A stretch of DNA of 29,821 nt from Candidatus Thorarchaeota archaeon (GTDB lineage Archaea > Asgardarchaeota > Thorarchaeia > Thorarchaeales > Thorarchaeaceae). The position numbers were made by a program, and so were the translations under genes. Position 1 is the first letter of the stretch, and every line of letters starts with the position of its first letter. This document shows positions 10,160-21,134 of this stretch, piece after piece. The stretch is taken from assembly GCA_048882485.1 (NCBI GenBank), contig JBHLRP010000035.1, positions 3,259 to 33,079 of the forward strand, given 5' to 3'. A model generated the notes under the pieces. It saw only the letters and a list, made by a program, of their open reading frames with translations. It was not told the origin of the DNA and made no database searches.

Positions 10160-10750
10160 ATGAACGATGTTCTGCCTGTATCAAAGGCACTATCCAATGC
10201 CACAAGGGTTCGAATCCTAGAGTATCTTCTCACCAAACGAGTCGCCAACAAAGGCGATGTAATGGAGGGGCTTGGGTTGGAACGTGCAACTCTGGAGCAT
10301 CATCTAAAACCTCTTGTGGATGCAGAATTGGTGTCCGTTATAGATGTCGTGATTGACAAGGTCAAGAACTCGCTTCTGTTTCCAGTAGCTTCAGTGAGTC
10401 TGGAAAAACGTCCAGAGATATCTGCCGAGGCCATGAGGGATGTTATTGGCACAGAGATTGAGAGCGACGTGAATCATGACGAGATTGAGGAGAACGCCCA
10501 AGCAGAAGTGAAGGCTGGTCGCTTGGATCCAGAGGATGCAGTTGCGATAGTAAGAACCCTGTTTGTCCACAGAGGTCGCGGCACTAAGAACATGTGCTCT
10601 GTGTGTGGCCGTATCAAAAAGATGGCTGACCTAACGCTGTGCGAGCGTTGTTTCAGACCTGCATGCATGAACTGCAACCAGACCATCAACAGGGAGGACG
10701 GGTATTCCGAATTTCTGTGTGATCGATGTGTGAATCAGCTATTCAGCTAG
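10160..10750 (+). CDS. ArsR-like winged-helix protein with C-terminal 8-Cys zinc finger
   Basis: KALSNATRVRILEYL...TLEHHLKPLVDAELV (ArsR/HTH_20 pattern); C-terminal CSVC-x11-CERC-x4-CMNC-x14-CDRC. Confidence 0.8.
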   Translation: MNDVLPVSKALSNATRVRILEYLLTKRVANKGDVMEGLGLERATLEHHLKPLVDAELVSVIDVVIDKVKNSLLFPVASVSLEKRPEISAEAMRDVIGTEIESDVNHDEIEENAQAEVKAGRLDPEDAVAIVRTLFVHRGRGTKNMCSVCGRIKKMADLTLCERCFRPACMNCNQTINREDGYSEFLCDRCVNQLFS

Positions 10751-10773
10751 ATGAAAATGCTTCACTGACAAAG

Positions 10774-10780
10774 TATAATA
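10774..10780 (+). promoter_or_regulatory. Candidate TATA box of the aro/tyr operon
   Basis: TATAATA preceded by purine-rich GACAAAG, about 250 nt upstream of the first gene. Confidence 0.5.
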
Positions 10781-10818
10781 GGGTTGTTTCCAAAGTCACC
10801 GGCTAAGTGATTCTCTCG

Positions 10819-10899
10819 ATGAATATAGAACTAGCCACGAACACTTGTGCGACAGGAAGAAACCAGTCGTATAGTGGCTATTATAGCTATTATCTGTAG
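10819..10899 (+). CDS. Putative tyrosine-rich leader peptide (26 aa)
   Basis: MNIELATNTCATGRNQSYSGYYSYYL*: five TAT codons among the last nine sense codons; GTGAT SD-like site at 10807; lies upstream of a tyrA-containing shikimate operon. Confidence 0.75.
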   Translation: MNIELATNTCATGRNQSYSGYYSYYL

Positions 10900-10923
10900 T
10901 CGAGAGTCACCGACGAATTCTGT

Positions 10924-10963
10924 CCTGCTCAGCAGGTTTCTATTCTGGTGATTCTATGCTTCT
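10924..10963 (+). terminator. Candidate attenuator terminator: short hairpin plus U/C-rich tract
   Basis: CCTGC-TCA-GCAGG (10924-10936) followed by TTTCTATTCTGGTGATTCTATGCTTCT. Confidence 0.5.
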
Positions 10964-11029
10964 AAGTGACAATACTCCAAATGCCATACCTCCTGACCGA
11001 TGGGCTCCAATTAGTGAAGGTGATTTCCA

Positions 11030-12427
11030 TTGACCAAGAGTGCCCAACTTGAGAGCCTGAGGAGCGAAATTGCTGATATTACTCTAGAGATTGTAGATTT
11101 GGTCGGGAGGCGGAACTCACTTGCTGAGGAGGTTGGTAGGGAGAAAGAACGACTTGGCTCTGCACTTGTGAATCGCGAGGTCGAGAAACGACTCAGGGCG
11201 GCAGTAATTGCACAATGCGAACAGAAGGGAGTGGATACGAATTTCGGACTCAGACTACTCAACCAGCTAATGGCAGAGTCGATACGAGTGCAAAGGAAAC
11301 GCACGAAGCAGCAGTTGGCTCTCGATGCGCACTACATCTTTGTCAAAGCTAAGGAGATGGAACGAGCCGGAAAGGAAGTCATCCATCTGGAAGTAGGTGA
11401 GCCAGACTTTGGTCCGCCCGATGCCGTGAAGAGGGCCATGATGGAAGCGGTTTCGAAAGGCCACACGCGTTACACACAGTCAATCGGTATTCCAGAACTT
11501 AGAACGAAGATCGCAAATCTACTAGGGTTACAATATCGGAGAGAAATTACTCCTGAAGAAGTGGTCATAACAGTCAGTGGTAAGTATGCACTGCATCTCA
11601 GCATGGCGGCAACACTCCGACCTGGAGATGAGGTAATACTAATCGATCCTAGTTTTCCAGCATATGCCGCAAGTGTCAGGGCACTCAACATGCGTCCTGT
11701 CCACATCTCAACCAAGCTGGAAGACAACTGGGACCTTGACCTTAGCCTTGTTGAGGATACCCTCAACGAGTCTACGCGGATGATTATTCTAAACAGTCCG
11801 TCCAATCCGACTGGCAAAGTATTGGATAAAGAAACACTGGTCGAGCTGAATGATTTGGCGGTCAAAAACAACATCATAATTCTCAGTGATGAGGTCTATT
11901 CCAAGTTTTCACTCAAGCCCCACTCGAGTATCCTGCAGGTTCCAGGTGCTAACCACATAGTAGCCAAGTCTTTCTCGAAGCCATATGCCATGACTGGATT
12001 CAGGCTTGGGTACGCTATCGCGGATTCTGATATCATCAAAAGGATGGCAGCTATTCAGTATCGCCAAGTGACTTGTGTACCAGAGTTCATCCAGCATGCG
12101 GGAATTGCTGCACTCGAATGCGAGAATGACGTTTCACGAAATGCATCAATAATCGAATCGCGCCTGAAGACTGCCAGTAGACTCCTTAGGCCTCTCCCTC
12201 TCACCTTCACTGAGTCCGAAGGAGGCTTCTACATATTCCTTCGGATGGCTAACGATGCAATGAGTGGACTGGAGTTTGCCGATCGGTTACTTTCAGAGAA
12301 AGGAGTCTGTGTTCAGCCCGGTGTATTATATGGAAGCCTGTTCTCATCATACTTCAGAATTTCAGTCTGTGCGTCCGACGAAGAGCTAGTAGAGGCAATA
12401 GCGCGTATAGGGAGGATTTTGGATTGA
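11030..12427 (+). CDS. Chorismate mutase (AroQ) - class I/II aminotransferase fusion
   Basis: N-terminal LESLRSEIADITLEIVDLVGRR...VGREK...REVE (CM type II); C-terminal LEVGEPDF, NSPSNPTG, SDEVY, SFSKPYAMTGFRLG (PLP Lys). Confidence 0.9.
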   Translation: MTKSAQLESLRSEIADITLEIVDLVGRRNSLAEEVGREKERLGSALVNREVEKRLRAAVIAQCEQKGVDTNFGLRLLNQLMAESIRVQRKRTKQQLALDAHYIFVKAKEMERAGKEVIHLEVGEPDFGPPDAVKRAMMEAVSKGHTRYTQSIGIPELRTKIANLLGLQYRREITPEEVVITVSGKYALHLSMAATLRPGDEVILIDPSFPAYAASVRALNMRPVHISTKLEDNWDLDLSLVEDTLNESTRMIILNSPSNPTGKVLDKETLVELNDLAVKNNIIILSDEVYSKFSLKPHSSILQVPGANHIVAKSFSKPYAMTGFRLGYAIADSDIIKRMAAIQYRQVTCVPEFIQHAGIAALECENDVSRNASIIESRLKTASRLLRPLPLTFTESEGGFYIFLRMANDAMSGLEFADRLLSEKGVCVQPGVLYGSLFSSYFRISVCASDEELVEAIARIGRILD

Positions 12428-13308
12428 GAGTGGCTATCATTGGCGCAGCCGGACAGATGGGAGGGTGGCTCATCAACCACTTTGTTTCTCAGGGACATAT
12501 CTTAGTGGTATCTGACGCTCGCAGCAATGCCCTTCGTGAATTAACTGAAACGCATGACCTAATCCTTGCTAGCAGCAACTCAGCAGCTGCGAAGGATGCT
12601 GATGTTGTAGTGGTATCCGTTCCAATCGCAAAGACGGCAGAAGTGATTCGGAACATAGCACCACAGATGAAGCAAGACGCGGTTCTATGCGAAATATCTT
12701 CAGTGAAGGGCGATATTCCCATAACTCTCCAAGAAGCATCCAAAAATGGAATTCGACCATTATGCATCCATCCGATGTTTGGTCCAGGTACGCGTTTTCT
12801 GAGGAAGAGAATCATTCTGATACCAACTGTGAATCTGACTGTTGAGGATGATCTTGTCGAAACTCTGTTTCCTGACTCTGAGATTATAGTTACAGACCCG
12901 GAGGAACATGATAGAATTATTGCACTAACCATCGCCTTGCCCTACTTCGTCAATATGGTCCTAGCCTCAGTATTGGCTGAAGAAGATGTCAGTTTGCTTG
13001 AGCAACTTGGTGGCACGACTTTCACGATGCAGCTCACCCTCACGGCGAGTGTTATGTCACAGTCCTTAGCCCTTCATTCGGCAATGCACATTGAAAACAG
13101 GCATGTGCTAGACCTGTTGCAGAAACTACAGCTCAGAACTGAGGAGAGCATCGCGAGCATCTCAGACAACAACCTTGACAATCTCGAAAAGATATTCTCG
13201 GAAGCGAAGGAGGGGCTTGGGGGCTGCATTGACCTTGAGGCGAAATACAGCGAGATGTATAGAGTACTTGAGGTTCTGAGGGGAGAGAATGGGATGGTGA
13301 AGCCGTGA
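12424..13308 (+). CDS. tyrA: Prephenate/arogenate dehydrogenase
   Basis: IIGAAGQMG Rossmann motif, EISSVKG, IHPMFGP, EEHDR. Confidence 0.92.
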   Translation: MRVAIIGAAGQMGGWLINHFVSQGHILVVSDARSNALRELTETHDLILASSNSAAAKDADVVVVSVPIAKTAEVIRNIAPQMKQDAVLCEISSVKGDIPITLQEASKNGIRPLCIHPMFGPGTRFLRKRIILIPTVNLTVEDDLVETLFPDSEIIVTDPEEHDRIIALTIALPYFVNMVLASVLAEEDVSLLEQLGGTTFTMQLTLTASVMSQSLALHSAMHIENRHVLDLLQKLQLRTEESIASISDNNLDNLEKIFSEAKEGLGGCIDLEAKYSEMYRVLEVLRGENGMVKP

Positions 13309-14390
13309 TAGAGGTTTCATTTGTTGTCAAAACAAACAGCAGAGAATATCCAGTATGTGTAGGTCAGAACATTCTGCCCCAAGTTGGTGATAGTGTTTCA
13401 GATACTGCAGATAGGGTCATCATTGTTACAGACGAAGGTGTTTCAAACATCTACCTAGACATGATCATCAAAGGCCTAAGCAACTCAGGCGTAGAAGCAA
13501 TCACAAAGGTCCTTCCATCGGGAGAAAGCATCAAGTCACTAGCTAGCACTGAGGAGCTATACCATTTCTTACTTGATAGACATGCTTCAAGGTCTGATAC
13601 TATTCTTGCTCTTGGCGGAGGAGTCATCGGAGACCTCGCTGGATTTGTCGCATCGACATACAAGAGGGGAATGGGCTTAATTCAAGCTCCAACTACTCTG
13701 CTGGCTCAAGTCGATTCAGCTTTGGGTGGGAAGACAGGTGTCAATCTTAAGGATGGAAAGAATCTGGTTGGTACATTCTATCAGCCAAATGCTGTTATAG
13801 CAGATGTTTCAGTTCTTGATTCTCTCCATGCTGATGATTTCGCTTCAGGACTTGGTGAAGTTATCAAATATGGGGCAATCATGGACAGGGAATTACTTGA
13901 CCTTCTTATGGACAATCGGGATGGGATTCTTGCACGAGAACCGAATATCATGTCCCAGATTGTAGAACGATGCTTGAGAAACAAGGCACGCGTAGTGGAG
14001 GAGGATGAGAGGGAGGAGAAGCGCCGGAGAGAGATTCTCAATTTTGGCCACACCATCGGTCATGCAATAGAAACCTGCTCTAGGCACAACATACCTCATG
14101 GCCATGCAGTAGCAATTGGGATGGTTGAGGAGGCTCGTTTCGCTATGAGGGAAGGTCATCTTGATGAGCAATCCCTAGATTCACTGGTTTCTATTTTGGA
14201 GGCTTTTGGCCTCCCCACTAGAATTCCTGAAGACGTGGATATGACTGAATTTGGAGATGTTATTCTGCAAGACAAGAAGATTCGACAAGGTCTGCTCATA
14301 CTCCCAATTCTAATTGAACTCGGTAGGGCTGAAATAAGGACTGTGGATGCGCCACACGCTCTAATCCCAAAAAGGGGAGGAGATAGATAG
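13305..14390 (+). CDS. aroB: 3-dehydroquinate synthase
   Basis: GGGVIGDLAGF, PTTLLAQVDSALGGKTGVN, KNLVGTFYQP, LNFGHTIGHAIE. Confidence 0.96.
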   Translation: MIEVSFVVKTNSREYPVCVGQNILPQVGDSVSDTADRVIIVTDEGVSNIYLDMIIKGLSNSGVEAITKVLPSGESIKSLASTEELYHFLLDRHASRSDTILALGGGVIGDLAGFVASTYKRGMGLIQAPTTLLAQVDSALGGKTGVNLKDGKNLVGTFYQPNAVIADVSVLDSLHADDFASGLGEVIKYGAIMDRELLDLLMDNRDGILAREPNIMSQIVERCLRNKARVVEEDEREEKRRREILNFGHTIGHAIETCSRHNIPHGHAVAIGMVEEARFAMREGHLDEQSLDSLVSILEAFGLPTRIPEDVDMTEFGDVILQDKKIRQGLLILPILIELGRAEIRTVDAPHALIPKRGGDR

Positions 14391-15466
14391 TGTTAGTAGT
14401 AATGTACAAAGAAGCAACAGAGAAGCAAATACAGAAAGTCATCGACTTAGTTGAGGAACTCGGATACACAGCAATCCCCAATCCTGGGGTGAGTCGAACT
14501 GTAATCAACATCACAGGAGAAGTGGATCTGCTCGACTCCGGTAGGCTTGAGGGCCTTCCGGGAGTCATGGATGTCATTCATGTAACCAAACCGTATAAGC
14601 TGGCAGACATTGAGTCAAATCTGGAGGGGACGGTCATTGAGGTTGGCAATGTAGAGATTGGAGGGCGTCGCCCCATAGTTATCGCAGGGCCCTGCAGTGT
14701 AGAGTCGAGGGAACAGATTCTCCAGGCCGCAGTTGCAGTGAGAGAAGGTGGTGGTGACATGCTCAGAGGAGGTGCATTCAAACCTCGGACTTCCCCATAC
14801 TCCTTCCAAGGTCTTGGTGTAGATGGTCTCAGACTTCTCGATGAGGCTCGCAAGAAAACAGGTCTCCCGGTAGTTTCCGAGGCTGTCGATGTTGAGAATT
14901 TCCCCGCTGTAGAAGCCATGGTTGATGTCATCCAGATCGGCGCTAGAAATATGCAGAATTACTCCCTACTAAAGCGCGCAGGACGAGCTAGAAAGCCGGT
15001 GTTGTTGAAGAGGGGGCTATCTGCAACACTCTCTGAGTTACTAGCTGCCGCTGAGTATATCATGGCAGAAGGGAATCATGACGTAATTCTATGCGAACGG
15101 GGTATCAGGACTTACAGTGATCACACACGCTTCACGCTTGACCTGAGTAGCATACCCGAGCTACGAAGGCTCACGCATCTCCCACTGATTGTGGACCCAA
15201 GCCATGCTGCAGGGAAAAGGGACATGGTTATTCCTCTTGCACGAGCCGGTCTCGCAGTTGGCTCGGATGGCATCATAATTGAGGTTCATCCGAAGCCCGA
15301 GGAAGCACTAGTAGATGGCCCACAGTCACTCACGCTTGATATGTTCCGCGAGTTCATGGAGAAGCTTCCCAAGAATGGGCTTTTGACTCACAGCCCGAGA
15401 TATGTGCACAACGGGACTAAGGAAACGCCAGCGGCATCTTGGACACAGAGCGAATCCGGGGAGTAG
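14390..15466 (+). CDS. aroF: DAHP synthase, type I-beta with N-terminal regulatory domain
   Basis: IAGPCSVES, RGGAFKPRTSPYSFQG, QIGARNMQN, LLKRG, CERGIRT, DPSH. Confidence 0.96.
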   Translation: MLVVMYKEATEKQIQKVIDLVEELGYTAIPNPGVSRTVINITGEVDLLDSGRLEGLPGVMDVIHVTKPYKLADIESNLEGTVIEVGNVEIGGRRPIVIAGPCSVESREQILQAAVAVREGGGDMLRGGAFKPRTSPYSFQGLGVDGLRLLDEARKKTGLPVVSEAVDVENFPAVEAMVDVIQIGARNMQNYSLLKRAGRARKPVLLKRGLSATLSELLAAAEYIMAEGNHDVILCERGIRTYSDHTRFTLDLSSIPELRRLTHLPLIVDPSHAAGKRDMVIPLARAGLAVGSDGIIIEVHPKPEEALVDGPQSLTLDMFREFMEKLPKNGLLTHSPRYVHNGTKETPAASWTQSESGE

Positions 15467-15480
15467 GTGGAGTTGAGAGC

Positions 15481-16161
15481 TTGACGAAGAAGAAGCTCTG
15501 CGTTTCACTGACAGAGCAATCCATTGAGGCATGCTCTAAAGCTATGACTTTGACTGATGCTGATTTGATAGAACATAGAATGGACTTCATGGATGGTATC
15601 GAGGGGCTGGCCACCATCTATGATGAATCGAAAGCTCCTATCATTGCTACATGCAGAACTCCTCAGGACGGAGGTCATTATATTGGTAAGGAGGAGGTCC
15701 GGATTGGTCATCTTGTTGAAGCATTATCAGCTGGGGCATCTTATGTCGACATTGAGCTAGATACTGATCCGACTCTGATGAGCAAGATTCGCACGGAGGT
15801 CGCAGCAAACAACTCCAAACTGATTGTATCGAAGCATTATATTGACTCAACCCCTGCTGTGTCGGAATTGCAGAATGTGCTGGACAGACTTGTCATTGCA
15901 GGAGCAGATATCATGAAGCTGGTCACCACTGCAATAACAATTGACGACTGCGGAAGAATATTGCACCTCTATCAGTCAAATAACAAGCCAGCTCGTCCGA
16001 TGATCGCATTTGCGATGGGTGACATTGGCAGATTCACAAGACTGACTGCGATGTTTCTTGGCGCACCTTTCATGTATGTATCACAAGACCAAGGTAAGCA
16101 AGCTGCTCCCGGACAAATCACATTATCAGAAATGAGGGCACTCCTGGAGGTACTAGGGTGA
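15481..16161 (+). CDS. aroD: Type I 3-dehydroquinate dehydratase
   Basis: EHRMD, IATCR, YVDIEL, SKH, DIMKL, AMG, APGQI. Start placed at TTG 15481 (track: 15439). Confidence 0.92.
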   Translation: MTKKKLCVSLTEQSIEACSKAMTLTDADLIEHRMDFMDGIEGLATIYDESKAPIIATCRTPQDGGHYIGKEEVRIGHLVEALSAGASYVDIELDTDPTLMSKIRTEVAANNSKLIVSKHYIDSTPAVSELQNVLDRLVIAGADIMKLVTTAITIDDCGRILHLYQSNNKPARPMIAFAMGDIGRFTRLTAMFLGAPFMYVSQDQGKQAAPGQITLSEMRALLEVLG

Positions 16162-17006
16162 AACGACTCGTAGTTGTCGGATATCCTCTGGGGCACTCAT
16201 TGAGCCCCGCGATGCATAATGCAGCGCTAGCTGAACTGGGTCTGGATGATGAGTTTAGATATGATGCTCTGCCACTTCCTAGTGACGAGCTTCGCGGATT
16301 TATGGAGTCTGTTCGAAATCGTGAGATTGAAGGCGCCAACATCACTATTCCTTATAAGACAAGGGTGATGGCTTACCTCTCAACCGTTTCTGCAGAGGGC
16401 AAGGCTGTAGGTGCAGTGAACACGCTCCATCGAAAAGATGGTCTGATAATTGGTGGTAACTCGGACATCATGGGTTTTATCGAAGCGATTAGAGAAAGGG
16501 GTGTGGATCCAAGAGGCATCAAAGCTGTAATTCTAGGAGCAGGAGGTGCGGCTAGGGCAGTTGCATATGGCCTTGCTGAAGCGGGAGCGACAAGACTGGG
16601 AATCTACAACCGCACTGTAGATGCGGCCTGGCGATTAGTATCAGTGATTGGCCGTGATAGACCATTGATAGTTTTCGCCAGGGCAAAACCAACTACAGAT
16701 GACCTAGATAAGACCAACCTAATTGTCAATTGCACACCAGTTGGAATGGCTGGTCACTCACTCAATGAATCACCTCTGGAGTCATCTAAGCTACCTAGTC
16801 ATGTTGCTGTGATGGATTTGGTATACAATCCGTTGAGGACTAAACTGCTCCTGGATGCTGAGCGTGCGGGATGCAAGACTATTGATGGAGTTGGAATGCT
16901 TGTCCATCAGGGAGCAATAGGCTTTCAGCTATGGACCAGCATGAATGCGCCTGTCAAGGTCATGAGGGAGGCCGTAATCCACGCATTAGGGGGCAAGAAA
17001 GCATGA
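16158..17006 (+). CDS. aroE: Shikimate dehydrogenase
   Basis: HSLSPAMHN, GANITIPYK, GAVNT, GAGGAARA, NCTPVGM, DLVYNP, MLVHQG. Confidence 0.96.
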   Translation: MKRLVVVGYPLGHSLSPAMHNAALAELGLDDEFRYDALPLPSDELRGFMESVRNREIEGANITIPYKTRVMAYLSTVSAEGKAVGAVNTLHRKDGLIIGGNSDIMGFIEAIRERGVDPRGIKAVILGAGGAARAVAYGLAEAGATRLGIYNRTVDAAWRLVSVIGRDRPLIVFARAKPTTDDLDKTNLIVNCTPVGMAGHSLNESPLESSKLPSHVAVMDLVYNPLRTKLLLDAERAGCKTIDGVGMLVHQGAIGFQLWTSMNAPVKVMREAVIHALGGKKA

Positions 17007-17527
17007 AGAAGGCCCAGAGAAGCATTAGTCTGATTGGTTTCATGGGCACTGGCAAGACAACAATAGGACGAGCCCTAGCTAATTCGCTCAGGCGCGATTT
17101 CATTGATACTGACTCACTCATTGAGGAGCGTGTGGGTAAGTCAATTTCTCGCATCTTCTCAGAGGATGGCGAACTATTCTTTCGTGACATAGAAGCCCAG
17201 ATCGTTAAAGAGGTGTGCGGATACAGATCTTCTGTTTTGGCTCTAGGAGGTGGAGCAATCCTCAATCCGAAAAGCGCCATCATTGTTAAGAGAAGCTCAG
17301 CTGTCGTACTTCTCAGGTCTTCAGTCGAAACCATCATTTCTAGGACGTCATCAAATAGGCTACGACCACTACTCGATGTTGCAGTTGGGGACCTGGTACA
17401 GAGAGTCGTAGCACTCCTCGCCGAAAGAGAGGCCGCATACTCTGAAGCAATGGACATTGAGGTACAAACTGACGCATTGAGTGTGGGAGAGGTTGTGTCA
17501 GAGATACTCAGGAGGTTGGAGATCTGA
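17003..17527 (+). CDS. aroK: Shikimate kinase (bacterial AroK/AroL P-loop type)
   Basis: GFMGTGKTT, DTD, GE.FFRD.E, LGGG, RPLL. Start ATG 17003 overlaps the aroE stop. Confidence 0.94.
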   Translation: MKKAQRSISLIGFMGTGKTTIGRALANSLRRDFIDTDSLIEERVGKSISRIFSEDGELFFRDIEAQIVKEVCGYRSSVLALGGGAILNPKSAIIVKRSSAVVLLRSSVETIISRTSSNRLRPLLDVAVGDLVQRVVALLAEREAAYSEAMDIEVQTDALSVGEVVSEILRRLEI

Positions 17528-18813
17528 GGGCTATAGTTCATCGCTCCACTGTCAATGGCGTTGTGGTTGCGCCCCCATCCAAAAGCTACACACACAGAGC
17601 CATCGTATGCGGTCTTCTTTCTAATGGTACTACAAGAATTCAGAATACCCTCCTTAGCGATGATACAAAGGCCACCTTGCGAATCTCAGAGATGTTGGGC
17701 GCAGAAGTTCATGTAGGGAATGACACGGATATTATAGGACCGGATGTGCTCAAGGCACCTCTTTCAGAGATGGACTGTCATGGCTCTGGTACTACGCTCA
17801 GAATCTTCACAGCATTGTCCGCTCTAGCATCAGGAAGATGCGTTCTGACGGGTGATGCGACTCTGCGGAGGAGACCCATCGGAAACCTACTTGATGGCCT
17901 GCGTCAGCTCGGAGCGGGTGCAAAGTCTTTGGGTGGGAATAACCTTCCACCCGTGGAGATTTGTGGTCAGGACTTCACTGGCGGCACGGTGAGAATTCGT
18001 GGTGATGTGACATCCCAGTACATAACTGCGCTTTTGTTCGCTTGTTCAAGAGCCAAAAGTGATACAGAGATAGAACTCACAACCGAATTGGGGTCGCGCC
18101 CATATGTTGAGATGACCTTGGATGTCATGCGCTCATTCGGCGCTGAGGCTAGGCCGTCTAATGATTGGAGGAGTTTCTCAGTTCCAGGAAACCAAGTGTA
18201 TCAGTCACAGGACTACTCTGTCGAGGGAGACTTCTCTTCGGCTGCATTTCTATTAGCGGCGGGTGCTCTCACGGGAAGAGTGAAGGTGAAAGGTCTTCGA
18301 GGGGACTCAATACAGGGAGATGCCGCTGCTGTCGGTCTATTCGAGTCTATGGGCGTCGAGATTAGTCATGATGTCGACAGTTTCACTGCCAGCCGCAACG
18401 AGATTCAGGCCATTGAGATTGATGCATCACACATCCCTGATCTAGTGCCAGTGATGACCGTGCTGGCGACTCAGAGCAATGGCACCACGACGATATACAA
18501 TGCAGGACGGTTAAGGTTCAAAGAAAGTGATAGACTCTCATCAACAACTCAGGAGCTTCGGAAAATGGGCGCACAGATTACAGAATCGAGCGATGGGTTG
18601 ACTGTTAGGGGTCCAACTGCTCTTCGTGGAGCGGTTATTGATCCCCATAAAGACCATCGCATTGCTATGGCAGGAGTAATAGCAGGACTAATTGCAGATG
18701 GTCAAACTGTAGTTGAAGACATTGAGTGTGTAACAAAGAGCTACCCTAGCTTCGTGGAAGACATCCAATCCATCGGCGCCCAGGTTGAGTTGGAATCAGG
18801 AGGAATTATATGA
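17524..18813 (+). CDS. aroA: EPSP synthase (3-phosphoshikimate 1-carboxyvinyltransferase)
   Basis: PPSKSYTHRA, GSGTTLR, RRPI, SQY, SRPYVEMT, RFKESDR, DHRIAM, KSYP. Probable CTG start at 17524 (track: GTG 17563). Confidence 0.95.
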   Translation: MRAIVHRSTVNGVVVAPPSKSYTHRAIVCGLLSNGTTRIQNTLLSDDTKATLRISEMLGAEVHVGNDTDIIGPDVLKAPLSEMDCHGSGTTLRIFTALSALASGRCVLTGDATLRRRPIGNLLDGLRQLGAGAKSLGGNNLPPVEICGQDFTGGTVRIRGDVTSQYITALLFACSRAKSDTEIELTTELGSRPYVEMTLDVMRSFGAEARPSNDWRSFSVPGNQVYQSQDYSVEGDFSSAAFLLAAGALTGRVKVKGLRGDSIQGDAAAVGLFESMGVEISHDVDSFTASRNEIQAIEIDASHIPDLVPVMTVLATQSNGTTTIYNAGRLRFKESDRLSSTTQELRKMGAQITESSDGLTVRGPTALRGAVIDPHKDHRIAMAGVIAGLIADGQTVVEDIECVTKSYPSFVEDIQSIGAQVELESGGII

Positions 18814-19883
18814 CATTCAAATTTGGCAAGGAATTCAGTATACAGGTCTTTGGAGAGAGCCACGGAGAAGGCGTGGGGGTAATTGTAGAGGGTTGTCCAG
18901 CGGGCCTACCAATTGACAAGGCACACATTCAGCTAGAGCTGGATAGACGCCGCTCTGGGGCAAGCAATCTTGCTTCTTCTAGATCTGAGAGCGACATCGT
19001 AGACATACACAGTGGTGTCTTCAAGAACAAGTCAACTGGGGCTCCCATAGCAATGAGTGTGCCCAACGTAGATGTCGACTCATCAACATATGAGGAAATC
19101 AAGGACAGTCCGCGACCCGGACATGCAGATTATACAGCTAGAGTCAAGTATAAGGGCCATCACGATTTTCGTGGGGGCGGCTTCTTCTCAGGTCGGATTA
19201 CTGCATCATTTGTCATGGGCGGTAGCATTGCCAAGCTCCTACTGAAGGCTGGTGGTATAGAAGTCCTAGCTCATGTTGTTCAGATAGGGGCAGTCAGGGT
19301 TACCAAGGAGGTTCCGGTCCAAGAGATAAGGACTCGAGTGTACACCAATGATCTTCGTTGTGCCGATGAAGAATCAGTGCCTAAAATGAGGGATGAGATC
19401 GAGAATGCAAAGAAGGAGGGCGACTCAGTCGGAGGAATCATTGAATGCCGCATTCTTGGAACTCCTGCGGGAATAGGCGAGCCCATTTTTGACTCTGTGG
19501 AGAGTGTTATCAGTCACGCTATGTTTAGCATCCCGGCAGTCAAAGGAATCGAGTTTGGATCTGGTTTCAAAGGAGCAGCTCTTCGAGGGTCCGAGAACAA
19601 TGATTCACCAGCCATTGAAGAGGGGAGAATCACATGGTTTCAGAACAATGCAGGAGGTATCCTTGGTGGTATCACTAATGGCGCTCCCGTGATCTTTAGA
19701 GTGGCTTTCAAGCCGACCCCAAGCATCTCGAAACCCCAAAGAACCATAGACCTCGAGAAAATGGAGGAAACTACCATCAGAGTCAGGGGCAGACATGATC
19801 CGTGCATTGTTCCAAGAGCGGTGCCAGTTGTGGAGGCGATGGCGGCAATCGCAATTACTGACCTTCTCAGAAGGGCTCGTTGA
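18810..19883 (+). CDS. aroC: Chorismate synthase
   Basis: FGESHG, PRPGHADY, SGRIT, IPAVKGIEFG, NNAGGILGGIT, KPTPSI, GRHDPC. Confidence 0.97.
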   Translation: MTFKFGKEFSIQVFGESHGEGVGVIVEGCPAGLPIDKAHIQLELDRRRSGASNLASSRSESDIVDIHSGVFKNKSTGAPIAMSVPNVDVDSSTYEEIKDSPRPGHADYTARVKYKGHHDFRGGGFFSGRITASFVMGGSIAKLLLKAGGIEVLAHVVQIGAVRVTKEVPVQEIRTRVYTNDLRCADEESVPKMRDEIENAKKEGDSVGGIIECRILGTPAGIGEPIFDSVESVISHAMFSIPAVKGIEFGSGFKGAALRGSENNDSPAIEEGRITWFQNNAGGILGGITNGAPVIFRVAFKPTPSISKPQRTIDLEKMEETTIRVRGRHDPCIVPRAVPVVEAMAAIAITDLLRRAR

Positions 19884-19903
19884 GTTTTACTTGAGAAGTA
19901 AGC

Positions 19904-20144
19904 TTTAAGTGAGTTTGATTCGGAACGAGATTCGGAGAACTGACGTGAGGTATTGCGTTCATCCGAGGCGGTTGCGTTCACTAAGAACGTCGCCAACAAC
20001 CTCCTAAGAAGACGAATCCTTCCTTCAGTTGACTCTCTGTATTCTATTTGTATCAACGTCATCATTCCAGTGACCAGTAGACGTTCTATTAGTTCATTCT
20101 TTGTGCTTCTGGTCTGCGTGAGAGGTGGCGAGTTGGTGATAGGT
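19904..20144 (+). promoter_or_regulatory. Candidate his promoter and long structured 5' leader
   Basis: TTTAAG at 19904-19909 after purine-rich GAGAAGTAAG; about 210-nt leader with several complementary segments (see findings). Confidence 0.45.
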
Positions 20145-21134
20145 ATGAAGAAGATTAGACTAGCGATTCCAAATGGACACTTAAGTAAAGCAACACTGGA
20201 CACCTTTGCACGTGCAGGCTACCGAATCTCTGGTGAGGAGAGGACCTACACACCTATCATTAACGACCCGCATATCGAAGTTAGGGTCCTGAGGCCCCAG
20301 GAGATCCCCACATTCGTTGCTGAGGGACTTCAGGACGTTGGTATCACTGGAAGGGACTGGATGAAGGAAACGAAGTCAGATGTCGAGATACTCTTGGATC
20401 TGGAGTACTCCAAGGTGCGATTGGTCATTGCTGTGCCAGAGAGCTTGAGCGGAGTGGATTCACTCTCGGACCTGATTCAGCACTACAAAGAAGCCAACCG
20501 TCCCTTCAGAGTGTTCACCGAATATCTCACGATAGCGAAAGATTTGCTGGTTGAAAATGAGGCATACGAGGAAATTTACGGCTCTGAGGAGCCGCTGATA
20601 GTGACTCCATGGTGGAGGAGCGGTAGCAATACCGAGGTGGGTGTCTACCTGTCCTTTGGTGCAACTGAGGCAAAGCCGCCCGATGTAGCCGATGCCATAA
20701 TTGAGATTGTTGATACTGGCGCATCACTCCAGCGCAACGGTCTGAAGATCCTTGAGGAAATCATGGACTCTACTGCTGTATTTATTGTGAACAAGGATGC
20801 TATTGAAGACTCTGATAAACAGGAGAAGATTTTCGATGTCATGACCTTGCTAAGGGGCGTTGTTGAAGCACGAAAGAAATTGCACATATTTGCTAATGTT
20901 GAACGCAACAAGCTTGATACACTGCTCAGTGAGCTCCCTGCATTGCAAAAGCCGACTATTAGCCCTCTATCTGATCCAAAATGGGTAGCAGTCAACACCA
21001 TTGTAGACCGCACACGGTTTCTCGAACTTGTCCCAACTCTGAGAAGGTTGGCTCAAGGACTTGTTGTATACGAACCACGTCAAGTATTGCCACTATCGAG
21101 TATGACTCAAGGAGGTAATCTGAATGGTGCTTGA
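20145..21134 (+). CDS. hisG: ATP phosphoribosyltransferase (long form)
   Basis: IRLAIPNG, RPQEIP, DVGITGRD, SFGATEAKPP, EIVDTGASL, C-terminal PTISPL domain. Start ATG 20145 after GGTGAT (track: 19953). Confidence 0.94.
   Translation: MKKIRLAIPNGHLSKATLDTFARAGYRISGEERTYTPIINDPHIEVRVLRPQEIPTFVAEGLQDVGITGRDWMKETKSDVEILLDLEYSKVRLVIAVPESLSGVDSLSDLIQHYKEANRPFRVFTEYLTIAKDLLVENEAYEEIYGSEEPLIVTPWWRSGSNTEVGVYLSFGATEAKPPDVADAIIEIVDTGASLQRNGLKILEEIMDSTAVFIVNKDAIEDSDKQEKIFDVMTLLRGVVEARKKLHIFANVERNKLDTLLSELPALQKPTISPLSDPKWVAVNTIVDRTRFLELVPTLRRLAQGLVVYEPRQVLPLSSMTQGGNLNGA

Follow-up and report, generated by a model that had tools for sequence, protein, structure and literature searches.

What does a short, tyrosine-rich open reading frame (ORF) do at the head of an archaeal operon for tyrosine biosynthesis? 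The question is raised by a stretch of 29,821 nucleotides (nt) from a Candidatus Thorarchaeota archaeon (assembly GCA_048882485.1, contig JBHLRP010000035.1, positions 3,259 to 33,079 of the forward strand), which is the window of this analysis and to which the coordinates below refer. In this window, a leader region with a Tyr-rich upstream ORF (uORF1) precedes an operon that begins with a gene for a chorismate mutase-aminotransferase fusion and contains tyrA, and leader and operon both lie on the + strand. Leader-peptide attenuation is a textbook bacterial mechanism, and an earlier note, made from the letters of this DNA, had proposed that the leader follows the logic of trpL, pheL and hisL, with a ribosome on uORF1 deciding on transcription termination. 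The comparison with related genomes leads to a somewhat different answer: it can be assumed with modest confidence that the leader is a cis-acting tyrosine sensor that is read by the ribosome, and it probably acts on translation.

uORF1 spans 10807 to 10899, including the stop codon TAG at 10897-10899. The frame from the ATG at 10819 to this stop encodes MNIELATNTCATGRNQSYSGYYSYYL, and the five TAT codons that had been noticed ahead of the stop are indeed there (10870, 10879, 10882, 10888 and 10891). Counted from an in-frame GUG at 10807, uORF1 has 30 codons, and tyrosine occupies 5 of the last 9 sense codons as against 3.4% of codons genome-wide. Related leaders were searched by BLAST and then with a covariance model built from 14 leaders, over 86 genomes of the family, and the leader was found in 23 of them, belonging to 6 of 16 genera. 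The Tyr-rich frame is open in 22 of these 23 leaders; across the 22 intact leaders it contains no stop, as compared with totals of 75 and 60 for the two alternative frames, each of which has at least one stop per leader, and same-composition shuffles of uORF1 are stop-free with P of about 0.13 each. The length of uORF1 is 87, 90 or 96 nt and changes only in multiples of 3 (+6 nt in three genomes of genus g1, +3/-3 nt in genus g5), whereas the spacer from its stop to the next AUG, 56-71 nt long, leaves all remainders modulo 3. The stop can be TAG, TGA or TAA and is always at the same place, and the start codons covary, as there is either a GUG at codon 1 together with an AUG at codon 5 or an AUG at codon 1 without an AUG at codon 5. 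The leader peptides (29-32 codons) have 3-6 Tyr each, two Tyr positions are invariant, the last Tyr codon stands 1-3 codons before the stop, and a motif (Y/F)SG-YY-S-Y is common to six genera, the remaining peptide being poorly conserved. In g5 and genus g29 the Tyr codons persist where the neighbouring sequence changes. Frame and Tyr codons are thus kept in orthologous leaders, which the earlier note had named as a check of its proposal.

The promoter suggests where the RNA may begin. A box resembling the archaeal B recognition element and TATA box, AAAGTATAATAG, lies at 10770 to 10781 and is conserved in all leaders; it is kept across genera despite differing upstream genes, the following ~20 nt are not conserved, and conservation resumes at CTAAGTGA. 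From the first T of the TATA box to the in-frame AUG or GUG there are 31-33 nt in all 22 intact leaders (22 of the 23 in total). When the usual archaeal distance from TATA box to start is applied, transcription is predicted to begin at about 10803-10806, that is 1-4 nt before GUG 10807, and uORF1 is probably leaderless and starts at this GUG. If uORF1 is leaderless, the segment of RNA called A below is the very 5' end of the transcript. Of the translation start at ATG 10819 that had been proposed, the codon itself is present, but the 5'-proximal GUG is the more likely start in view of the TATA spacing; and transcription is predicted to begin upstream of 10819, the position downstream of which a start would have spoken against the earlier proposal. 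Two short repeats were seen in this region as well: AGTCACCG, just upstream of the predicted transcription start (10794-10801), recurs in segment B (10905-10912), and CTAAGTGA, at the RNA 5' end (10803-10810), recurs at codons 3-5 (10962-10969) of a second upstream ORF, uORF2; both segment B and uORF2 are described below.

How would the position of a ribosome on uORF1 be read out? Segment A (10807 to 10819), which overlaps the start codons of uORF1, is the 5' strand of a helix P1, and it pairs with segment B (10900 to 10912), which directly follows the uORF1 stop and can pair alternatively with segment C (10946 to 10955). Inside uORF1, a helix P2 (10832-10838 with 10874-10880, thus 10832 to 10880) encloses the hairpin P2a (about 10846-10873), and the 3' strand of P2 consists of Ser-Gly-Tyr codons of uORF1; P1 closes a three-way junction with P2 and P3. 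Segments A, B and C and the nested stems are all present where the earlier note had placed them, and the unconstrained fold contains TAGCCAC/GTGGCTA, which is P2, as well as TATAGA/TCTGTA and an inner GCGAC hairpin. As the fold energy of the whole leader is not unusual (z = -0.76), the structural case rests on the relatives. Pairing statistics were calculated for P1 (the A:B core), P2, P2a and a helix CACCG:CUGGUG in 15 leaders from five genera, and 85.7% of the cells of these helices are paired, compared with 31-39% when the partner columns are slid by 1-3. Seven pairs in these helices have changed on both sides, and the covariation score is 0.286, compared with 0.158 in shuffles, with none of 500 shuffles reaching 0.286. 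In P1, pair 12:115 occurs as AU, CG and UA and pair 13:114 as CG and GC; P2 has two and P2a three pairs with changes on both sides, with 93% and 83% of cells paired. Genus g5 has a wholly different P1, in which AUCUUGAC pairs with GUCAAGAU. P1, P2 and P2a thus covary, which was a further check that had been suggested for orthologous leaders.

The helix B:C was judged by duplex energies with shuffle and cross-genus controls, as MAFFT sets the genera in different registers here. The A:B duplexes have an energy of -13.1 kcal/mol with their own partner versus -9.0 kcal/mol with the partner from another genus, and for B:C the values are -13.7 versus -9.7 kcal/mol. A:B beats its shuffles at p < 0.05 in most leaders, and B:C does so in genera g1 and g6 and in about half of the g5 leaders. 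When the helices are forced in the free RNA, the P1 state is favoured by a mean of 2.7 kcal/mol (in 15 of 22 leaders), and with a ribosome on the first clustered Tyr codon this margin drops to 0.9 kcal/mol (10 of 22 leaders). In these models the P1 and B:C states are nearly isoenergetic. The mutually exclusive A:B and B:C helices that had been described by manual pairing are borne out in that both share B, are conserved and co-evolve, while their dependence on the ribosome is a matter of modelling; the claim that stalling frees B for C agrees with the modelled tilt of about 1.8 kcal/mol towards B:C. Pairing of B with the 5' arm of the hairpin T that follows it, considered as a general antiterminator, was seen by eye in one leader only (G091), and it was discarded as not general.

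What B:C would control becomes apparent from segment C, which contains the Shine-Dalgarno (SD) sequence GGUGAU (10947-10952) of uORF2 and the 3-nt spacer to its AUG at 10956. The same SD is found before hisG and before the fusion gene, and the UGGUG of segment C is invariant in the 22 intact leaders. uORF2 (10956 to 11033) is a relay ORF of 25 codons, the TGA of which overlaps the TTG start of the fusion gene in the sequence TTGA; the fusion gene itself (11030-12427) was recognized in a Pfam scan. The role that had been assigned to C, the masking of a U-rich tract, overlooked the uORF2 SD and AUG, and as C is SD plus spacer, it is a ribosome-binding site that B:C most directly masks. uORF2 is present in all 22 intact leaders, with 25-52 codons and a poorly conserved peptide, and in each of them it ends in a stop codon -8 to +5 nt away from where the fusion gene begins. 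The fusion gene starts with TTG in 11 leaders, with GTG in 2 and with ATG in 9, and an SD-like motif, here GAAGGTGAT at 11016 to 11024, is found 8-13 nt upstream of this start in 19 of the 22; in three leaders of genus g29 the nearest GGAG is further upstream. By its layout, this is an arrangement for termination-reinitiation coupling.

In the folding models with ribosome footprints, the core of the uORF2 SD has an unpaired probability of 0.22 without a ribosome, of 0.11 when the 5' end (A) is occupied, which is the lowest of the modelled states, of 0.17-0.18 with a stalled ribosome, and of 0.29, the highest, with a ribosome on the stop codon that covers B; in all the states that were modelled the core is predominantly paired. 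Between the uORF1 stop and the start of B lie 0-6 nt, the 13-nt leading edge of a stalled ribosome reaches only the first nucleotides of B, and the modelled SD exposure does not rise. Such values could also be read as a constitutive coupling chain from uORF1 to uORF2 to the fusion gene, or the leader could simply be a 5' structure that stabilizes the mRNA, in both cases without any sensing of an amino acid. The arm that masks the SD begins right after the uORF1 stop, and the highest exposure with a ribosome on that stop is the usual design of positive coupling. However, this explanation is highly improbable, as it does not account for the conserved enrichment of Tyr towards the end of uORF1, for the alternative helix P1, which is conserved as well, or for the strict association with a Tyr-only pathway, and coupling of this kind, taken as a sensor, would turn the operon off under Tyr starvation.

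Transcription termination, the output that the earlier note had proposed, would depend on hairpin T (CCTGC-TCA-GCAGG, 10924 to 10936), which caps the B:C hairpin, and on the pyrimidine- and U-rich tract TTTCTATTCT (10937 to 10946) between T and the uORF2 SD. In such an attenuator, T and the tract would terminate transcription, either intrinsically or by way of aCPSF1/FttA, when A pairs with B or a ribosome covers B, and under starvation a ribosome stalled on the Tyr codons would let B:C form, which masks the tract and allows read-through. A hairpin is found at the position of T in all 23 leaders, with sequences unrelated between the genera and with -6.7 to -19.5 kcal/mol, it is followed by a U-rich stretch in all of them (5-8 U in 13 nt), and a consensus scan flags T plus TTTCTATTCT as terminator-like. 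Since aCPSF1 binds single-stranded U-tracts in the emerged RNA, masking by pairing would be conceivable (PMC8716108), and the tilt towards B:C on stalling would give the classical logic directly. However, U runs reach a length of only 2-4 (3 in this leader) and two U4 tracts exist in just two leaders; terminators usually carry 4-7 U, and aCPSF1 of Methanococcus maripaludis needs two U4 tracts for efficient binding and does not bind U3 (PMC8716108). The modelled exposure of the U-rich tract is nearly equal in all ribosome states, at 0.39-0.49, T is compatible with both states and has no helix as a competitor, and a polymerase on the tract has yet to transcribe C, which lies further downstream. 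For all these reasons termination is less likely to be the primary output. The proposed attenuator also leaves no role for the invariant SD and AUG in C or for the coupled uORF2, and as a whole it is possible though doubtful. The folding with ribosome footprints that had been suggested as a check thus agrees with the predicted shift to B:C on stalling but not with a tract that is exposed in one state and hidden in the other. Factor-dependent polarity after a loss of translation is possible.

ORF, Tyr codons, both helices and the coupling of uORF2 are conserved, and the switch could be wired as follows. Transcription would start a few bases before 10807, and uORF1 would be translated from the 5' end of the RNA, so that the position of the leading ribosome sets whether B pairs with A in P1 or with C. 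When charged tRNA-Tyr is scarce the ribosome would stall on the Tyr codons, and when it is plentiful the ribosome would proceed to the stop codon and cover B. The choice of B would then decide on the translation of uORF2 and, by termination-reinitiation, on that of the Tyr operon. Hairpin T and the U-rich tract, placed between B and C, would be suited to pause the polymerase after B and before C is made; in this interval, a stalled ribosome would leave A and B free, so that P1 is the first helix to form, with C left open and the operon on, whereas an unstalled ribosome would cover B, and once it leaves, B would snap to the nearby C and the operon would be off. A loss of translation could add transcriptional polarity to this effect. 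We infer this kinetic wiring, in which P1 forms first and starvation means on, and prefer it because three features suggest that the coupling is positive: stop and start are juxtaposed, the start codons are weak, and an SD precedes the main start.

Several observations weigh against this reading, and they concern the sign of the switch, the helix B:C, the coding character of uORF1 and the rest of the genome. Equilibrium folding fails to yield the sign that is required, as stalling tilts the RNA towards B:C, and in this genome the uORF2 SD is mostly paired even in the P1 state; an operon that is on during starvation therefore needs the kinetic argument or a different output. Neither footprint folding nor forced-helix energies settled the sign. 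The complementarity of B and C is not significant in the genera g2, g7 and g29. uORF1 has no codon-position periodicity and no third-position excess (entropy 0.77, 0.88 and 0.84 for the three positions), and there is no excess of synonymous changes in the real frame (0.26, as compared with 0.20 and 0.35), which is why the translation of uORF1 has to be argued from the intact frame, the start codons and the phase of the indels. Stems also contain several of the Tyr codons, so part of their conservation may be structural. Finally, no other leader with cognate codons was found before amino-acid operons of this genome: when the whole genome was scanned twice for short ORFs enriched in a single amino acid, one scan was too noisy and the other gave 41 candidates, and the genes downstream of five of the His- or Trp-rich candidates proved in no case to be a matching biosynthetic operon.

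The sign mismatch would disappear in a relay of two uORFs that inverts the sign. Here, ribosomes translating uORF2 would pass across the SD and the start codon of the fusion gene, which would make uORF2 inhibitory, and stalling at Tyr would drive B onto C, silence uORF2 and turn the operon on. This wiring, in which B:C means on, matches the prediction from equilibrium folding, and it resembles the logic of the overlapping inhibitory second uORF known from eukaryotic ATF4 and GCN4. We consider this alternative unlikely.

The substitution pattern in uORF1 bears on two further explanations. The first takes the leader as an RNA-only switch, a riboswitch or the site of a regulatory protein, in which the P1/P2/P3 junction senses and both frame and Tyr codons are by-products of UAUAG-type repeats. 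Riboswitches typically use a closing helix to control their expression platform, and P1 resembles such a helix; the structure covaries strongly, a coding-type substitution pattern is lacking, and part of the Tyr codons stand in the stems P2, P2a and P3. All the same, this explanation is decidedly unlikely, as the frame is open in all 22 functional leaders while the other frames have about three stops each, the indels are multiples of 3 within the frame and not outside it, the start codons covary at a constant spacing from the promoter, Tyr codons persist in g5 and g29 despite changed surroundings, and no Rfam family matches, T-box included. The second explanation, that uORF1 makes a functional Tyr-rich micropeptide such as the precursor of a modified peptide or a small regulator, could point to the motif kept across six genera, but the rest of the peptide is poorly conserved and without an excess of synonymous changes, no modifying enzymes are encoded nearby, where only aro and tyr genes follow downstream, and the conserved residues coincide with RNA stems. 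It is hardly credible. Judged by its substitutions, the peptide sequence of uORF1 as such shows no sign of selection, as is expected of a leader peptide, and we infer from the integrity of the frame that uORF1 is translated.

If the leader is a tyrosine sensor, is it also tied to tyrosine genes? Among the 86 family genomes, 23 have tyrA and 23 have the leader; both occur together in 21, the leader alone in 2, tyrA alone in 2 and neither in 61, counts that come from related genomes and are not independent events. In the two genomes with tyrA only, tyrA is divergent (33-34% identity). In one of the two with the leader only (G090), a fusion-gene start directly follows the leader and no tyrA was found in the assembly. 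The other (G014) has the one decayed leader, with a 1-nt deletion, GAG in place of GTG and an in-frame TGA, and downstream of its hairpin T there is no uORF2 SD, no uORF2 and no fusion gene, nor was tyrA found in that genome. This co-occurrence and the decay in G014 tie the leader to the operon, and as far as these genomes tell, the leader lives and dies with the tyrA operon. Outside the family, the covariance model gave no convincing match in a sample of 125 genomes that represent 14 other families of the phylum, the one hit of 28 bits being at chance level. No Tyr-rich uORF precedes the same chorismate mutase-aminotransferase fusion at its loci in Caldarchaeum, and five genomes of the family that lack the leader have generic aminotransferases only and not the fusion.

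That the leader is Tyr-only fits the genome. The aro operon holds tyrA and neither pheA nor trp genes according to Pfam scans, as had been claimed, and this extends to the whole genome, in which PDT and Chorismate_bind domains, which stand for prephenate dehydratase and anthranilate synthase, were not found (the assembly is 90.5% complete, and 14 of 14 control genomes were positive). With no branch to Phe or Trp found, Tyr appears to be the only one of these three amino acids that the organism makes. No tRNA-Tyr gene was found in the assembly by ARAGORN, which an intron or a gap could explain.

Which known systems does this leader resemble? The nearest working analogue is the mycobacterial class of leaderless poly-Cys small ORFs represented by Ms5788A (the 'Cys ribulon', Canestrari et al.), where a stalled ribosome blocks a duplex that sequesters the ribosome-binding site (bioRxiv 10.1101/834739). 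In both cases a leaderless sensory small ORF, with its start only predicted here, is the first cistron of an operon for the same amino acid and has its cognate codons clustered, the output is translational rather than an intrinsic terminator, which for the archaeal leader is what we would expect, and a duplex forms over the SD of the next ORF, here B:C over GGUGAU and spacer, albeit weakly in g2, g7 and g29. The differences are that Ms5788A is bacterial and the present leader archaeal, without any sequence relationship, that the stalled ribosome blocks the duplex directly in mycobacteria whereas the Tyr codons lie just upstream of the duplex here, and that here a third segment, A, competes for B and a relay ORF is inserted between sensor and enzyme gene.

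With trpL, pheL-pheA and hisL the leader shares a short ORF rich in cognate codons before the cognate operon, a last regulatory codon that precedes the stop by 1-3 codons, and a stop that abuts a segment with two partners (region 2 there, B here). It differs in that the defining alternative, the 3:4 terminator, is missing, as T is uncompeted and the U-rich tract short, in that segment 3 (C) is a ribosome-binding site and region 2 has its partner at the 5' end of the RNA instead of in the codon tract, and in its archaeal promoter and probably leaderless start. Codon enrichment and exclusive helices, two elements of the bacterial logic that had been proposed, are thus found again, whereas a regulated terminator, the third, is not. 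Rfam, with its Trp, Phe and His leaders and the T-box included, gave no match at E up to 10 between 10000 and 12000. In the aroR leader upstream of aroF in Corynebacterium glutamicum (Neshat et al. 2014), as summarised in PMC11802643, a leader peptide with aromatic codons (Phe-Tyr-Phe) likewise stands ahead of a shikimate-pathway operon; aroR responds to Phe and not to Tyr (PMC11802643), and it acts on transcription in a bacterium, whereas the leader described here is Tyr-only, which matches a genome where neither a Phe nor a Trp branch was found. The ermCL/ermC and cat leaders are alike in that the position of the ribosome on the leader ORF remodels hairpins that hide the next SD, and different in that the signal is a drug-arrested nascent chain instead of a charged tRNA and there is no relay ORF.

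No report of an archaeal leader-peptide attenuator was found in the literature, Haloferax ribosome profiling included, in a search of incomplete coverage. For the present leader, in an Asgard lineage, the support from comparison with relatives is strong. It looks as if ribosome-read amino-acid sensors have been published only for bacteria and as if this leader is wired differently from the textbook type, with an architecture of its own that would combine an archaeal promoter, a probably leaderless sensor ORF, a competitor helix at the 5' end and a relay uORF coupled to the operon. Should the proposed function be true, this would be the first working family of ribosome-mediated amino-acid attenuators in Archaea, and the sensing of charged tRNA by ribosome position would have arisen or been retained outside Bacteria. 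The leader would then also offer a concrete system, open to mutation, in which to test how Asgard archaea couple transcription to translation, initiate on leaderless RNAs and reinitiate after termination, and it would supply archaeal genetics with a portable switch that responds to an amino acid. If the sign-inverting relay applied instead, logic like that of ATF4 and GCN4 would exist in the archaeal group closest to eukaryotes. In any case the leader marks which Thorarchaeota of this family carry tyrA (23 of 86 genomes).

The operon itself (11030 to 19883) consists, by Pfam, of the genes for the fusion protein, tyrA, aroB, DAHP synthase, aroD, aroE, aroK, aroA and aroC, and the next gene after it is hisG, separated by a 260-nt spacer. 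The close relatives of the fusion protein are from Candidatus Thorarchaeota/Promethearchaeota, and they bear out the Asgard host that the earlier note had suspected. The DAHP synthase of the operon is of type I and has a ferredoxin-like domain, and its shikimate kinase is of the SKI type (15439-17527); both are bacterial-type enzymes, whereas the usual archaeal route uses ADH-synthase and a GHMP-kinase. The aro operon is patchily distributed over the family, with tyrA in 23 of 86 genomes, and may therefore have been acquired horizontally. A second copy of tyrA, 79% identical to that of the window, is found at the start of a short contig of the same genome (G000 contig C77:429-1307), and it could stem from a mixture of strains in the bin, which has 5.8% contamination, or from a paralogous operon.

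Upstream of the leader, a gene for an ArsR/HTH_20 regulator (10160-10750, same strand) ends 20 nt before the TATA box, and the C-terminal half of the encoded protein is Cys-rich. The gene is conserved at this position in G009 and G014 and not in the other genera, and its product may act as a further transcription factor on the aro operon.

At the other end of the operon, the spacer upstream of hisG (19884-20145) contains a block of ~55 nt (about 19929-19986) with a tandem direct repeat TTGCGTTCA(T/C), and hisG likely starts at ATG 20146 with the SD GGTGAT. The block is not a tRNA and matches no Rfam family, and a conserved His-rich uORF was not seen. It is preceded by a TATA-like box and is 81-92% identical ahead of hisG in 7 family genomes from 5 other genera (L109-L115), which makes it a candidate for a cis-regulatory RNA or an operator of the his operon.

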